Positions 1 through 4,733 of a stretch of DNA of 5,747 nucleotides are shown piece by piece. Source of the stretch: a virus. Lineage: Duplodnaviria; Heunggongvirae; Uroviricota; Caudoviricetes. Position 1 is the first letter of the stretch. Each line of letters begins with the position of its first letter. The notes under the pieces were generated by a model. It was not told where the DNA came from and ran no database searches. It saw nothing but the letters and a program-made list of their open reading frames with translations. Location: the IMG/VR virus record IMGVR_UViG_2671180577_000020; one strand, given 5' to 3'. The translations under genes were made by a program, and so were the position numbers.

Positions 1-102
1 GTGAACTTTAAAAAGATGAGTGCTGAACTTATTCGGGCAATGGCATTTGCCATTCGTATTGTGGCCATTGCTGTTCTGGTCTGGGCAATCCGTTGGTGGT
101 GA
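1..102 (+). CDS. 3' end of an upstream gene (partial, start lies outside the window); possibly the endolysin by synteny, but the hydrophobic C-terminus is atypical
   Basis: Frame 1 is open from base 1 to TGA at 100-102, 2 nt before the Rz ATG at 104. Translation ends ...[25 protein letters not shown], a hydrophobic segment. It does not end like lambda R as I recall it. Product not identifiable from 33 codons. Confidence 0.4.
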
Positions 103-103
103 A

Positions 104-598
104 ATGAACCGCGTTCTGTGTGTGGTCATCATTGCTCTGCTGGTGGCCTGTGGTGCGCTTAGTCTGGGGCTGAATCATTACCGCGATAACGCCATCACTT
201 ACAAAGCGCAGCGCGATAAAAAAGCCAGTGAACTGAAGCTGGCGAACGCAACCATTACTGATATGCAGGTGCGCCAGCGCGATGTTGCTGCGCTCGATGC
301 AAAATACTCGAGGGAATTAGCCGATGCGAGAGCTGAAAATGAAACTCTGCGTGCTGATGTTGCCGCTGGTCGTAAGCGCCTGCGGATCAACGCCACCTGC
401 TCCGGTACCGTGCGTGAAGCCACCGGCACCTCCGGCGTGGATAATGCAACCGGCCCCCGACTGGCAGACACCGCTGAACGGGATTATTTCATCCTCAGAG
501 AACGGTTGATGACAATGCAGAAGCAGCTGGAAGGGGCGCAGGAATATATCCGCACTCAGTGCACTAAGCTGGCTTTTTATTATCCGGAGGATATATGA
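104..598 (+). CDS. Rz: Rz-type i-spanin (inner-membrane spanin subunit)
   Basis: Protein from the ATG at 104 ([39 protein letters not shown]...VAALDAKY...VAAGRKRL...[11 protein letters not shown]...[12 protein letters not shown]) is near-collinear with lambda Rz as I recall it: N-terminal TM helix, then a coiled-coil periplasmic domain. The track ORF starts at 20, but homology begins at the ATG at 104, which sits just after the upstream stop with GGTGGTGA as a weak SD. Confidence 0.9.
324..509 (+). CDS. Rz1: Rz1-type o-spanin (outer-membrane lipoprotein spanin subunit), embedded in the +1 frame of Rz
   Basis: 61 aa, [61 protein letters not shown]. Signal peptide plus lipobox (LVVSAC), proline-rich mature part, and the conserved [20 protein letters not shown] block of lambda Rz1. 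GAGGGA lies 8 nt upstream of the ATG. It lies entirely inside Rz in another frame, the classic arrangement. Confidence 0.85.
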
Positions 599-819
599 AG
601 AAATTACTGGTAACCGTAAAGCCTTTTCAGGGAACAATTCTGTTCCGTATTTTGCAGCGTGGTCGTGTTCTTGTTGAAGGTTCGTTCAGTGGTAAATGTA
701 CGCAATTACACTCCCGGACCTTTCAGGTGAATGCCACGAATGAAGAGCTAACCGTTGAGTGTACGATGAATGCCGCTAAATGCCGCATGGTATCCGCTGC
801 ATTACAGCCAGTGTGTTGA
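595..819 (+). CDS. hypothetical small protein (74 aa), translationally coupled to Rz; function unknown
   Basis: Its ATG at 595-597 overlaps the Rz stop at 596-598 (ATATGA), with GGAGGA 6-11 nt upstream. Same strand as the late operon. No signal peptide or TM; three Cys in the C-terminal third. No family recognised. Confidence 0.5.
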
Positions 820-1094
820 GCGACCTTATTATCCATGCGCGGTATTGTCGCCGTATTCCCGCATTAACAGAGACCGCAGCCCGACCGGGAGACTCCTCTT
901 CGCGAGTGTGCGGGGATAATCAAAAACGATACACACCGGGGTTTACCGCGTTAACGGAGCGCGGCGTTGCCCCTCATAGTCGCCTGTCCGGTGCGATGGT
1001 GGAAGAAGCCGGACGATGTGTTACCTCGCAAGCCCTGTTATGTGTCTGATTTGTGATTTAAGTCGGATAATTGTCGTTGCCATCAAGCAGAGGA

Positions 1095-1137
1095 TTGATG
1101 ACCGACAGGGTGGCATTGTTAGAATAAGACTTATTCT
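1095..1137 (+). promoter_or_regulatory. candidate sigma70 promoter with an overlapping palindromic operator-like site upstream of the TonB-CTD lipoprotein gene
   Basis: TTGATG (1095-1100) and TAGAAT (1120-1125) with a 19 nt spacer, longer than optimal. Overlapping the -10 is the dyad AGAATAAG-A-CTTATTCT (1121-1137), 8 bp arms. An AT-rich GATAAT-type tract at 1064-1082 (GATAATTGTCGTTGCCATC) is loosely Fur-box-like. Pattern-based only. Confidence 0.3.
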
Positions 1138-1151
1138 TATCTGTGCCGGGA

Positions 1152-1484
1152 ATGAAAATGAAAAGAAATCTTCCGTTAATTATTTTGTTGTCTTCTCTGG
1201 TTATGGGCTGTACGCAACATAAAACAGATATGCCCCGACAGTTGGTTAAGGCATTACCACAATATCCGGCCTATGCAGCGGCAAATTATATAAAGGGACG
1301 GGTTGATGTGAAGTTTGATATTGGTGCTGATGGTACTGTCACCCGAATTGAGTTTATCCGTTCAGAGCCGCACCATCTGTTTGATGAGCAGGTTGTAAAG
1401 GCGATGGCAAAATGGCGATTTGAGAAGGACAGGCCGCGTAAAGGCGTGAAGAAAACGTTTATCTTTAGTCCTTCTGCACCCTGA
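1152..1484 (+). CDS. lipoprotein with a TonB C-terminal domain (TonB-CTD-like, lipid-anchored); accessory (moron) gene
   Basis: MKMKRNLPLIILLSSLVMGC-TQHK is a signal peptide with lipobox (VMGC) and Thr at +2. The mature part (PQYPAYAAANYIKGRVDVKFDIGADGTVTRIEFIRSEPHHLFDEQVVKAMAKWRFEKDRP) carries the hallmark TonB C-terminal motif (P.YP..A...EG.V.V.F.V..DG.V..V.......FD..V..A...W.F). Start is ambiguous: GTG 1143, ATG 1152 or ATG 1158; 1152 chosen. Stop TGA at 1482-1484. Confidence 0.8.
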   Translation: MKMKRNLPLIILLSSLVMGCTQHKTDMPRQLVKALPQYPAYAAANYIKGRVDVKFDIGADGTVTRIEFIRSEPHHLFDEQVVKAMAKWRFEKDRPRKGVKKTFIFSPSAP

Positions 1485-1615
1485 TTATTTCATCAGAAAT
1501 TAATTATCACTCTGTTGTTATTCTGTACATTCCGGCTGGGTAAGTCTTGTTCCGCCGGATATGAAGATGAAATATTGTTGGAGGACAGTGGGTGCCTGCT
1601 CCTGTAACCGAACGT

Positions 1616-1816
1616 TCATTTCTCGTTATTTGTCATGCTGGCCGGACGCAGATGCGTTGCATCTGTTGCCAGCCTTCTCCTGCAGGCTTCAATAACCCAC
1701 GCTGAAAAGTTACCGGACCCTTTATGCTCAAGGGCGATGTTGATCTGTTCAATCATGTGATTGGGGAAACGGATATTGCGGGTTGTGGTTCTGCGGGTCC
1801 GGTTTTTCGATGACAT
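1616..1816 (-). CDS. small ribbon-helix-helix-like protein resembling the YlcI/YnfO (DUF3950) family of lambdoid prophages; antisense to the late operon
   Basis: Minus-strand ORF of 66 aa from the ATG at 1816-1814: MSSKNRTRRTTTRNIRFPNHMIEQINIALEHKGSGNFSAWVIEACRRRLATDATHLRPASMTNNEK. Strong SD (TAAAGGAAATAAAT-ATG). The track ORF extends 20 codons upstream, but the internal ATG has the RBS and matches the family N-terminus as I remember it. The family sits just upstream of the terminase region in E. coli cryptic prophages, as here. Family recall is from memory, not a search. Confidence 0.75.
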   Translation of the reverse strand: MSSKNRTRRTTTRNIRFPNHMIEQINIALEHKGSGNFSAWVIEACRRRLATDATHLRPASMTNNEK

Positions 1817-1857: not shown

Positions 1858-2223
1858 ATGGCTGAGCTTCGTACACTCCAGAGCAGAATCAAAACTCTGA
1901 ACACCCGACGGGTGAATATTCTGAAGGGGGAACAGCGTCGTGTCAGTGGCAGTGCACGTGTTTCCCTCAAGCGTCATATCTGGCTCAGGGATGCCGGGCA
2001 GTGCTGTCTCTGTGGTCGTGTGGTTGACCTCTGTGACAGTGAACTCGATCACCGCATTGCACTTCAGTTCGGTGGTGGTAATGAGGAGACGAATCTCTGG
2101 ACGCTCTGTACCGAATGCCATCGCCAGAAGTCAGTCAGTGAAACGGCGAGTGGTATGCCGGACCCGACGCTGCCGGAGGTGTCCGGAGGTCATGGCAGGG
2201 CAGACGATATCATCGGACTGTGA
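1858..2223 (+). CDS. HNH endonuclease (phage packaging-associated HNH, HK97 gp74-like)
   Basis: 121 aa with the canonical HNH/zinc-finger signature: CxxC (CCLCGR) ... DHRIALQFGGGNEETNLWTLCTECHRQK (D-H ... N ... C..C-H). Sits immediately upstream of the cos-like region and the terminase genes, the conserved position for HNH packaging cofactors. Confidence 0.9.
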   Translation: MAELRTLQSRIKTLNTRRVNILKGEQRRVSGSARVSLKRHIWLRDAGQCCLCGRVVDLCDSELDHRIALQFGGGNEETNLWTLCTECHRQKSVSETASGMPDPTLPEVSGGHGRADDIIGL

Positions 2224-2511: not shown

Positions 2512-3075
2512 GTGCTGACAACGCAAAAACGAAAATTTGCGCTGGCGCTCATGTCCGGGAAAAACAAAACAGCGTCAGCCCTTGCCGCCGGTTATTCGGC
2601 GAAGACAGCCAGGGTTAAAGGCTCGCAGCTGGCAAAAGATCCGGAGGTGCTTGCGTTTATAGCCCGTAAACAGTGCGAGACGGTGGAGGTGGATGAGGTT
2701 CCTGTTTACCGGCAGAAAAAATCAGAGCCGGAGGATAAACCCCGTCGCCGTGAGGCGGCTGCAATACCACAGCCGGACGAAACAAATCCGGAGATGCCAC
2801 CGCCCGTGGTGATATCTCCTGGTATTGAGTATATGGAGGACGGTCTTCCCGATCCGGTGAAAGCGATGGGGCGTCTTCTGGTGGAGAACATTAATACCGA
2901 CCCCAGGCTGGCGCTGGATGCGGCTTATAAGCTGGCGCAGTTCACGCACCACAAAAAAGGGGATGCCGGTAAAAAATCGGCAAAAGGTGACGCGGCGAAA
3001 AAAGCGGCTAACCGTTTTGCGGTGCCACCACCACCCCGCCTGGTGGTGAATAATGATAATGAGGGCAACGGATGA
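2512..3075 (+). CDS. terminase small subunit (TerS; Terminase_2/P27-like HTH type)
   Basis: 187 aa from GTG 2512, preceded by a strong SD GGGAGGAGG (2501-2509). The N-terminus QKRKFALALMSGKNKTASALAAGYSAKTARVKGSQLAKDPEV is the typical TerS HTH region; lysine-rich basic C-terminus. Stop overlaps the TerL start (ATGA at 3072-3075). Confidence 0.85.
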   Translation: MLTTQKRKFALALMSGKNKTASALAAGYSAKTARVKGSQLAKDPEVLAFIARKQCETVEVDEVPVYRQKKSEPEDKPRRREAAAIPQPDETNPEMPPPVVISPGIEYMEDGLPDPVKAMGRLLVENINTDPRLALDAAYKLAQFTHHKKGDAGKKSAKGDAAKKAANRFAVPPPPRLVVNNDNEGNG

Positions 3076-4733
3076 TACCTGTGTGGAGCACGGCATGTCC
3101 GGACTGGGCAGAGCGCCTGAAAAAGGGGCTGTCGATTATTCCGGCTCCGATTTATCCGGACCAGGCTGCACATGCACTGGCGATTTTTAAACAACTGCGG
3201 ATTGTGGATGCACCGGGTAGCCCGACATTCGGGGAGTCCTGTGCACCGTGGGTGTTTGACCTGGTGGCGGCCCTGTTTGGCTCCTACGATGCGCAGACCG
3301 GTGTTCGCCATATCAAGGAAGTGTTTATCCTTATCCCCAAGAAAAACAGTAAGTCCACGCTGGCCGCGGGGATCATGATGACGGCGCTGTTACTGAACTG
3401 GCGGCAGGCGGCGGGCTACACCATTCTGGCCCCGACCGTGGAGGTGGCGGCTAACGCCTTCAACCCTGCCAGGGATATGGTACGACGGGACGATGATCTG
3501 GATGACCTCTGTCAGGTGCAGACACATATCCGGACCATCACCCATCGGGTGACGGACACCACCCTGAAGGTGGTGGCAGCCGATCCGAATACGGTGTCCG
3601 GTATCAAGTCCGTGGGGACACTGATTGATGAACTGTGGCTGTTTGGCAAGCAGTACAAAGCGGAAGACATGCTACGTGAAGCCATCGGCGGGCTGGCTTC
3701 ACGTCCGGAAGGGTTTGTGGTGTACACAACCACCCAGTCGAATGAACCGCCTGCCGGGGTGTTCAGGCAGAAACTGCAGTACGCCCGGGATGTCCGTGAC
3801 GGCAAAATTCATGATCCGCACTTTCTGCCGGTGATATTTGAGCATCCTCCTGAAATGGTGGAAAGCGGGGCTCACCTGCTGATGGAAAACCTCGCCATGG
3901 TTAACCCGAATCTCGGTTATTCGGTGGATGAGGCCTTTCTGTACCGGGAGTATCGTAAAGCCCGGGAAGCCGGGGAAGAGACTTTCCGCGGTTTCATGTC
4001 AAAACACGCCAATGTGGAAATCGGTCTTGCCCTGCGTTCTGACCGCTGGGCGGGCGCGGATTTCTGGGAGCAGCAGGGCAGGCGCGTCAGCCTGGACGAT
4101 ATCCTGCAGCGCGCTGATGTGGTGACGGTGGGGATTGACGGCGGGGGCCTGGATGATCTGCTGGGAATGTACGTGACTGGCCGTGACAGGGAAACCCGCG
4201 AATGGCTGGGCTGGGGCCATGCCTGGGTGCATGAAACCGCGGTGGTCAGACGGAAGAGTGAGGCATCCCGGTTTCAGGATTTTGTGGCCTGTGGAGACAT
4301 GACGATTGTCCGTCGGGTCGGGGATGACACGGCGGAAGTGGCGGAGTATGTGCGTCGTATTCATGAGGCTGAGTTACTGGATCATATCGGTATTGACCCG
4401 TCAGGTGTGGGGCAGATTCTGGATTCACTGGCGGAAGCCGGGATCCCCGATGAGAGTGTGGTGGGGATAAGCCAGGGCTGGAAGCTGGGCGGGGCCATCA
4501 AAACCACCGAGCGCAAACTGGCTGAGGGAGTGCTGGTGCATGGTGGTCAGCCACTGATGGCCTGGTGCGTTGGCAATGCCCGGGTGGAGCCTAAAGGTAA
4601 CGCCATTCTTATCACCAAACAGGCCAGCGGACGGGGAAAAATTGACCCTCTGATGGCGCTCTTCAATGCGGTGTCCCTGATGTCCCTGAATCCGGAACCG
4701 AAAAAGAAAGCGTATGAGGTTTTTTTCATATAA
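3072..4733 (+). CDS. terminase large subunit (TerL; HK97/Terminase_1 family ATPase-nuclease)
   Basis: 553 aa. Deviant Walker A typical of Terminase_1 large subunits (LIPKKNSKST; compare PRKNGKS). The length and the acidic C-terminal half are compatible with a nuclease domain (inference). ATG overlaps the TerS stop (translational coupling). Ends TAA at 4731-4733. Confidence 0.93.
   Translation: MIPVWSTACPDWAERLKKGLSIIPAPIYPDQAAHALAIFKQLRIVDAPGSPTFGESCAPWVFDLVAALFGSYDAQTGVRHIKEVFILIPKKNSKSTLAAGIMMTALLLNWRQAAGYTILAPTVEVAANAFNPARDMVRRDDDLDDLCQVQTHIRTITHRVTDTTLKVVAADPNTVSGIKSVGTLIDELWLFGKQYKAEDMLREAIGGLASRPEGFVVYTTTQSNEPPAGVFRQKLQYARDVRDGKIHDPHFLPVIFEHPPEMVESGAHLLMENLAMVNPNLGYSVDEAFLYREYRKAREAGEETFRGFMSKHANVEIGLALRSDRWAGADFWEQQGRRVSLDDILQRADVVTVGIDGGGLDDLLGMYVTGRDRETREWLGWGHAWVHETAVVRRKSEASRFQDFVACGDMTIVRRVGDDTAEVAEYVRRIHEAELLDHIGIDPSGVGQILDSLAEAGIPDESVVGISQGWKLGGAIKTTERKLAEGVLVHGGQPLMAWCVGNARVEPKGNAILITKQASGRGKIDPLMALFNAVSLMSLNPEPKKKAYEVFFI

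Follow-up and report, generated by a model that had tools for sequence, protein, structure and literature searches.

TonB-dependent transporters of the outer membrane admit many phages to the cell, as well as group B colicins, siderophore-microcins and siderophore-antibiotic conjugates. The energy transducer TonB (E. coli P02929) is anchored in the inner membrane by a transmembrane helix that couples it to ExbB and ExbD, spans the periplasm with a proline-rich spacer and carries a C-terminal domain (CTD, residues 150-239). We analyse a stretch of 5,747 nucleotides from a virus of the Caudoviricetes (IMG/VR record IMGVR_UViG_2671180577_000020; the whole of this stretch is called the window below), in which a gene on the + strand at 1158..1484 encodes a small lipoprotein made of a TonB CTD. 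Compared with TonB, the protein keeps the same fold (0.8-1.1 Å) in a gapless alignment of 79-81 residues, but it lacks both the ExbB/D-coupling helix and the proline-rich spacer and has instead a signal peptide and a tether of seven residues, with the polarity reversed: its predicted anchor lies in the outer and not the inner membrane. The interpretation that we rank first, at somewhat below an even chance, is that such an outer-membrane-tethered CTD would bind competitively and damp TonB-dependent entry.

Several described systems resemble this protein in part. The engineered periplasmic TonB fragments of Howard, Herrmann, Stratilo and Braun (2001), as they are cited in PMC9841981, likewise place an energy-uncoupled TonB domain in the periplasm; those fragments are artificial, soluble and over-expressed, whereas the window protein is natural and predicted to be lipid-anchored. 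Cor (phages phi80, N15 and HK022) and Llp (T5) are also small phage lipoproteins of the outer membrane, and act from the periplasmic side on the TonB-dependent receptor FhuA. They target one receptor allosterically, usually the phage's own, whereas the window protein would target the shared TonB box, and we find no sign of kinship with Cor or Llp either as a Pfam or PHROG match or as a structural match of the protein model in BFVD at E <= 0.001. The morons Bor, Lom and SitABCD share the neighbourhood (bor adjoins the homologous gene in phage 21) and the arrangement as a single-gene cassette in a conserved backbone, but they belong to other protein families, and Bor is antisense to the late operon where the window gene is sense. 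Rz1-type o-spanins are outer-membrane lipoproteins encoded beside lysis genes as well; the window protein differs from them in its globular TonB_C domain.

Homologues of the gene have been deposited under a variety of names, namely 'TonB C-terminal domain protein' (the depositors' name in phage 21), 'TonB family protein', 'tonB-like membrane protein encoded within prophage CP-933N', 'TonB fragment' and 'partial tonB-like membrane protein', and no member of the family bears a gene name in the records. Our literature searches found no functional study of the TonB_C lipoprotein, and the phage 21 genome announcement mentions morons generically and does not discuss it. The protein thus presents a known domain family in a new architecture, one that records already annotate but that is uncharacterised; what the analysis adds are the limits of the cassette that carries it, how widely the family is spread, the strong purifying selection to which it is subject and an unexpected association with Fur boxes.

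The preliminary description of this locus had recognised a complete TonB CTD, and every comparison we made agrees with it. Residues 28-108, encoded at 1233..1475 on the + strand, correspond to TonB 153-233 (window residue n is TonB residue n+125 throughout). The domain matches Pfam TonB_C (PF03544) at E 5.5e-15, with 56 bits against a cut-off of 24.6, and TIGR01352 with 56.5 bits against a cut-off of 27.1; the last ~80 positions of the enterobacterial TonB equivalog models (NCBIfam PRK10819 type) also match, at 49-73 bits against cut-offs of 265-448. A phmmer search of PDB sequences aligns it to E. coli and Salmonella TonB 153-231 without a gap (E ~5e-16), and identity to E. coli TonB is 31/85 residues (36%). 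Kept from TonB are the YP motif (Y38-P39, equivalent to Y163-P164), which is described in the literature as a universally conserved feature of TonB and here forms part of a PQYP motif, as well as F180, G186, F202, W213 (W88), E216 and F230 (F105). Conservation across the family alignment extends to the YP motif, the aromatic core and the alpha2 helix.

The predicted structure agrees. An AlphaFold2 model built from a 7-sequence family alignment has a predicted local distance difference test score (pLDDT) above 90 for residues ~30-108 and takes the alpha-beta-beta-alpha-beta fold of the TonB CTD with the YP motif in place. In the model and in the alignment, the beta3 strand (model residues 96-106), to which in TonB the TonB box of transporters binds by beta-strand addition, is present together with the equivalent of F230. 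Superposition on known TonB CTDs with Foldseek, a check that had been suggested earlier, gives 0.8 Å over 79 residues to 1u07 and 1.1 Å to the TonB chain of the BtuB:TonB complex (2gsk_B). The top Foldseek matches are all TonB CTDs, with TolA marginal only. By sequence and fold the domain is nearest to enterobacterial TonB and to the conformer of TonB in the BtuB complex, and true enterobacterial TonB models and structures outscore divergent TonB_C proteins.

What precedes the domain is a lipoprotein N-terminus. The open reading frame is real, although the 110-residue version given in the preliminary description is probably two codons too long: 14 related loci, and phage 21 too, have ATA in place of the upstream ATG at 1152, which makes ATG 1158 (108 residues, stop codon TGA at 1482-1484) the more probable start, and it is at ATG 1158 that the NCBI/RefSeq annotation begins. 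The signal peptide (1158..1211, + strand) ends in the lipobox LVMGC (1197-1211; Cys codon TGT 1209-1211). We took as the mark of a lipoprotein a positive n-region, a hydrophobic h-region and a lipobox [LVI][ASTVI][GAS]C; the precursor N-terminus (MK)MKRNLPLIILLSSLVMG|C fits this PROSITE-type pattern, with the cysteine at residue 20 and threonine at +2, just as had been proposed. The pattern is a family trait, since a lipobox and a residue other than Asp at +2 occur in 15 of the 16 members checked (14 by the regular expression, and P0041, with LSAC, by eye), leaving P0106 as the one without a lipobox. Both features are retained down to 33% identity, the +2 residue being Ser, Thr or Ala in the other members. 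In Enterobacterales, the absence of Asp at +2 directs a lipoprotein to the outer membrane, and we infer that localisation for the window protein.

Between the cysteine predicted to be lipidated and the domain lies the seven-residue tether TQHKTDM (1212..1232, + strand), delimited by the TonB alignment and modelled at low pLDDT; in most family members its length is 7-8 residues. The earlier claim that the protein has no transmembrane helix and no proline-rich spacer holds: the place of the coupling N-terminal helix of TonB is taken, at residues 1-20, by a lipoprotein signal peptide that closes with LVMGC, and because only seven residues part the cysteine from the equivalent of TonB P153, neither a transmembrane anchor nor a periplasm-spanning spacer can be present.

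Without the helix and spacer of TonB, the protein cannot receive energy from ExbB/ExbD. The architecture would then place an energy-uncoupled TonB CTD on a leash of ~7 residues at the inner face of the outer membrane, where transporters and translocating group B colicins present their TonB boxes. There the conserved surface of the domain (the PxYP segment and the free edge of beta3) would bind TonB-box strands at the periplasmic face, whether from TonB-dependent transporters or from incoming colicins that bear a TonB box; alternatively, the target may be the CTD of TonB itself. With either target the lipoprotein would compete with host TonB and reduce the entry of phages, colicins or microcins, at the cost of some loss of siderophore and B12 uptake. 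We infer the TonB-box binding, the competition and the resulting phenotype, while the sequence analysis shows what the domain is, its fold, the lipobox, the cassette, the purifying selection, the distribution and the Fur boxes of the homologues. As cited in PMC9841981, an over-expressed periplasmic TonB domain inhibits iron import through TonB-dependent transporters, both FecA- and FhuA-dependent (Howard et al. 2001), and TonB-box peptides inhibit colicin killing and phi80 infection (Tuckman & Osburne 1992). It is because an extra periplasmic TonB domain or a TonB-box peptide is reported there to be inhibitory that we place competitive binding first.

The gene is carried by a discrete insertion. 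Phage vB_EcoS-569R3 aligns contiguously to window 1-1015 and 1606-2600 at 95% identity and lacks 1016-1605, so that a cassette of ~590 bp (1016..1605, + strand), comprising a putative promoter region, the TonB_C lipoprotein gene and a 3' tail, is present in one phage and absent from the other. At its junctions lie the two copies of an imperfect direct repeat, AAGCCGGACG on the left (1006..1015) and AACCGAACG on the right (1606..1614), both read from the sequence, and the cassette-free phage has a single GAAGAAACCGAACG at this place. The preliminary description had put the gene in a moron slot between the lysis and packaging modules. If a moron, in the sense of Juhala and Hendrix an autonomous extra gene in a phage backbone, is a discrete insertion absent from otherwise collinear relatives, then the 590-bp indel with its junction repeat describes one, and by this comparison window 1016-1605 is a moron. 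In Stx2_EH2201, an unrelated AT-rich insert of ~250 nucleotides (L100 1435-1680) occupies the same junction point; as far as these alignments indicate, the junction 1015/1606 is an insertion hot spot. Also part of the earlier picture was that the gene is flanked by antisense genes, and here only the downstream side stands: the YlcI/YnfO (DUF3950) gene (1616..1816, - strand) is convergent with the cassette, while upstream the spanin genes Rz/Rz1 and the 74-codon open reading frame orf74 (595-819) are sense.

Upstream of the gene the cassette holds a plausible control region. A consensus scan (9/12 plus TG) returns a sigma-70-like promoter candidate at 1098..1125 on the + strand, made of ATGACC, a 16-nucleotide spacer and TAGAAT with the extended -10 element TGtTAGAAT (1117-1125), and the candidate element is kept as TGtCAGAAT at the same place in phage 21. 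Overlapping the -10 element and the likely start site is a perfect, operator-like 17-bp palindrome, AGAATAAG-A-CTTATTCT (1121..1137, read from the sequence), the right half of which is missing in phage 21. It looks like a candidate operator for a dimeric regulator, or a degenerate Fur box. A longer imperfect inverted repeat, GGCA...TGCC, encloses the palindrome at 1112-1147. For a structured leader RNA we find no credible Rfam match (the only match in the window is a sub-threshold chance match to a snoRNA, away from the leader), and the 5' and 3' folds are no better than those of shuffled sequences. By analogy with lambda biology, late transcripts should run into the gene too, since it follows the late operon in the sense orientation.

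How widespread is the gene? Homologous DNA occurs in 1618 of 5426 complete E. coli genomes (~30%) and falls into two types, with ~416 genomes at >=95% identity (the window type) and ~1200 at ~74%. The second type is the one carried by the classic phage 21, between bor and cos. Between the two E. coli types dN/dS (the ratio of nonsynonymous to synonymous divergence) is 0.19/1.51 = 0.12, and on this measure the gene is under strong purifying selection. Beyond E. coli, a profile search and retrieval of loci (the locus search used a 6-sequence alignment) recover relatives of ~110-130 residues at 33-51% identity. A survey of the neighbours in other prophages, again a step suggested earlier, finds the same slot between lysis genes and terminase reused in at least six phage backbones, including the HNH/TerS/TerL type of the window, lambda-like phage 21, Klebsiella phage ST13-OXA48phi12.4, a Sodalis prophage, L108/L109 and L112. 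Neighbours of the slot include known genes of lysogenic conversion, for example bor in phage 21. As a separate matter, many long proteins (300-1000 residues; P0034, P0038, P0039 and others) consist of 3-6 tandem TonB_C domains and match the profile of the lipoprotein family as strongly as the family members themselves.

The family is not confined to prophages. Chromosomal, non-prophage members lie between lacZ-lacI and DUF1440/MlrA in Raoultella and Klebsiella, near nhaB in Serratia and near panE in Erwinia, and one adjoins ahpCF. The DUF1440 gene, for a YagU-like membrane protein, that adjoins the Raoultella/Klebsiella copies (L086 6744-7307) has a counterpart in Klebsiella phage ST13-OXA48phi12.4 (L084 1277-1903), where it precedes the lipoprotein gene by a few kb, a proximity that may be coincidence or may reflect a shared origin of the segment. 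A further member with 35% identity and no Fur box (L107 4001-4390) sits on a plasmid-like contig directly after the ParM/StbA-StbB partition genes, and is followed there by a DUF6694 gene and then by a KAP NTPase and QatB of the Qat anti-phage system.

We scanned whole loci, ~210 kb in total, with the 19-bp Fur consensus and find an unexpected association. In Raoultella, Klebsiella, Serratia, Sodalis, Erwinia and several metagenomic loci (L086-L092, L094-L096, L101, L104-L106 and L110-L112), the best Fur match lies 23-91 nucleotides upstream of the gene. These upstream boxes score 14-17/19, some being perfect 7-1-7 sites (TGATAATtATTATCA), and each is usually the sole site of >=14/19 in its locus. 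Comparable matches elsewhere in the scanned sequence occur about once per 19 kb; given this background, sites within 100 nucleotides in ~10 independent lineages are far beyond chance. Because Fur boxes stand upstream of most members outside E. coli, we predict that the family is as a rule induced by iron starvation, and the boxes imply a lipoprotein so far unrecognised in the Fur regulon of Klebsiella, Raoultella, Serratia, Erwinia and Sodalis. In the window itself the Fur-like match at 1123-1141 scores 13/19, which alone is not above background, at a position homologous to that of the 14-17/19 boxes of the homologues. In the Sodalis prophage (L095) we also note a second Fur match, of 16/19, at 7665-7689, ~1.7 kb downstream of the lipoprotein gene and directly upstream of a DUF1441 terminase-small-subunit gene.

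Fur control bears on the decoy in two ways. On the one hand, a Fur box in most homologues would match expression of the lipoprotein to that of the Fur-derepressed transporters, as suits a protein that competes for their TonB boxes. On the other hand, the Fur-controlled and chromosomal members would be induced just when TonB-dependent uptake is most needed, which is awkward for a general inhibitor, and the chromosomal members in Klebsiella, Raoultella, Serratia and Erwinia together with the Fur boxes complicate a purely anti-phage role. Several other observations weigh on the same side of the balance. A clear Fur box is found neither in the E. coli copies (13/19 in the window, 10-11/19 in phage 21) nor in L107 and L108. 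TonB Q160 is replaced by Leu in the window copy and by Tyr in the phage-21 type, and TonB R166, a residue that contacts FhuA, by Tyr in the window protein. Searches of PADLOC-DB return no match to a defence-system model at E <= 0.01. After the gene there is no intrinsic terminator by a consensus scan, and the 3' fold is no better than shuffled sequence. In one narrower form, as self-exclusion at the phage's own receptor, the idea is unlikely, given that phage 21 uses LamB and that phage JLK-2012 has lom and no cor.

A Fur-controlled inhibitor would block uptake at the time of greatest need, which makes a role as helper or scaffold a serious rival, even if we regard it as unlikely. It holds that the lipoprotein is a Fur-induced, outer-membrane-anchored paralogue of the TonB CTD that aids TonB-dependent uptake. 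The TonB CTD is reported to bind FhuD and to dimerise. The lipoprotein may dock the TonB CTD or FhuD/BtuF near the transporters or ready the TonB boxes, and so serve the phage as a fitness moron in iron-limited hosts, like sitABCD. The Fur boxes of 14-17/19 within 100 nucleotides upstream in ~10 independent lineages, nearly the sole such matches, speak for this role, as do the chromosomal, non-prophage members and the presence in phage 21 of both the lipoprotein gene and the sitABCD importer. Set against these points, a lipoprotein has no energy source, no transporter or siderophore gene adjoins the gene in any locus examined and the E. coli prophage copies are without a clear Fur box; moreover, an extra CTD is inhibitory in the experiments cited in PMC9841981. 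Should the family indeed aid the uptake of iron, the Fur regulon of Klebsiella, Raoultella, Serratia and Erwinia has a component that has gone unrecognised.

A further alternative, to which we attach a somewhat smaller probability, is that in this envelope protein the TonB_C fold now serves to bind another ligand (peptidoglycan, another outer-membrane protein or a host-derived molecule). Like Bor or Lom, the protein would then affect the stability of the envelope, serum resistance or colonisation. It is in keeping with such a role that the gene adjoins bor in phage 21, that some TonB residues implicated in receptor contact are not conserved and that TonB_C domains occur in many architectures not concerned with energy transduction (tandem-repeat proteins such as P0034, and matches to AgmX/PglI and MxcH). 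However, bona fide TonBs of enterobacteria, as models and as structures, give the window protein its best scores, the protein keeps the PxYP segment and beta3, and Fur control points to the biology of iron or of TonB-dependent transporters.

Much less probable is an accessory role late in infection, in which an outer-membrane lipoprotein acts with the spanins or protects progeny at lysis. The gene does lie directly 3' of the lysis cassette in the orientation of the late operon, and the protein has a full-length match to phrog_1267, labelled 'Rz-like spanin' in the category lysis, at E 1.9e-42. But the phage already has a complete Rz/Rz1 pair; the TonB fold of the protein is globular, which sets it apart from a short proline-rich o-spanin, and the C-terminal transmembrane helix of u-spanins is lacking; close relatives lack the gene, the 95%-identical phage among them; and homologues stand under Fur boxes in non-phage chromosomal loci. 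We reject a spanin identity on account of the Rz/Rz1 pair, the fold and this dispensability, and the phrog_1267 label is almost certainly a positional mis-annotation that is spreading into phage records. Finally, a non-functional captured fragment of host tonB, as old annotations such as 'TonB fragment' and 'partial tonB-like membrane protein' and the frameshifted or truncated alleles among the retrieved homologues (mostly of the phage-21-type subfamily) might suggest, is rejected as highly implausible, for the acquired lipoprotein signal peptide is conserved across the family, dN/dS is 0.12 at a dS of ~1.5, 36% identity to E. coli TonB is not that of a recent capture, and the upstream Fur boxes are conserved in the homologues.

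Competitive binding by the tethered CTD thus keeps its first place, and it can be extended to a broader conjecture that we hold with more doubt than the competitive binding itself. The family would be an Enterobacterales-wide, usually Fur-controlled, natural TonB-box decoy, turned on along with the transporters of iron starvation and intercepting invaders that bear a TonB box (group B colicins, microcins, and phages that enter via TonB-dependent transporters) at the periplasmic mouth of the receptor. Temperate phages would have captured it repeatedly as a broad-spectrum exclusion or immunity moron, and the E. coli copies would have swapped the Fur box for another operator. If the decoy is real, a mobile inhibitor of the shared TonB box, and not of one receptor, would be a new class of superinfection exclusion or bacteriocin resistance. 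With the gene in about a third of complete E. coli genomes, Stx1a-converting phages included, its effects could touch phage therapy, cefiderocol-type drugs and iron physiology, and a natural energy-uncoupled CTD in reversed topology would be a probe of the mechanism of TonB.

One neighbouring observation concerns phage 21. SitABCD is an iron/manganese importer of the ABC (ATP-binding cassette) type that is independent of TonB at the outer membrane. In phage 21 (L085, OL657228) the sitABCD moron, from 21967-24502 onward, lies in the same genome as the TonB-CTD lipoprotein gene and bor, and it may compensate there for damped TonB-dependent uptake.

The window as a whole comes from the late region of an HK97-headed, lambdoid prophage of E. 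coli, and more than 1000 complete E. coli genomes, together with Stx-converting phages, match the whole of it at 95-97% identity. The lysis cassette ends with the i-spanin gene Rz (104..598, + strand; Pfam Phage_lysis, E 6.8e-50; RefSeq name 'lysis protein'), in which the o-spanin gene Rz1 is embedded (324..509, + strand; Pfam Rz1, E 1.7e-21). The convergent YlcI/YnfO gene beyond the cassette belongs to the phage backbone and is kept in the cassette-free phage. Packaging begins with an HNH endonuclease gene (1858..2223, + strand), followed by TerS (2512-3075) and TerL (3072-4733), and a prohead-protease/capsid gene starts at 4797.

Two non-coding elements in this backbone deserve mention in their own right. 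Between orf74 and the cassette, window 835-1013 is a non-coding element of ~180 nucleotides that is 78-96% conserved in ~400 records of lambdoid and Stx phages, those with and those without the TonB_C gene alike. Between the window and phage 21 its conservation is higher than that of the adjoining coding sequence; it holds the inverted repeats CCCGCA...TGCGGG and CACCGG...CCGGTG and has no match in Rfam. Between the HNH gene and TerS, at 2313-2441, the sequence ATGTTAAC(T/C)(G/A)G occurs five times, in both orientations, preceded by the G/C run CCGCCCCGGGGGGGG at 2225-2238; these five repeats are probably TerS recognition or cos-region repeats of an HNH-dependent packaging system.

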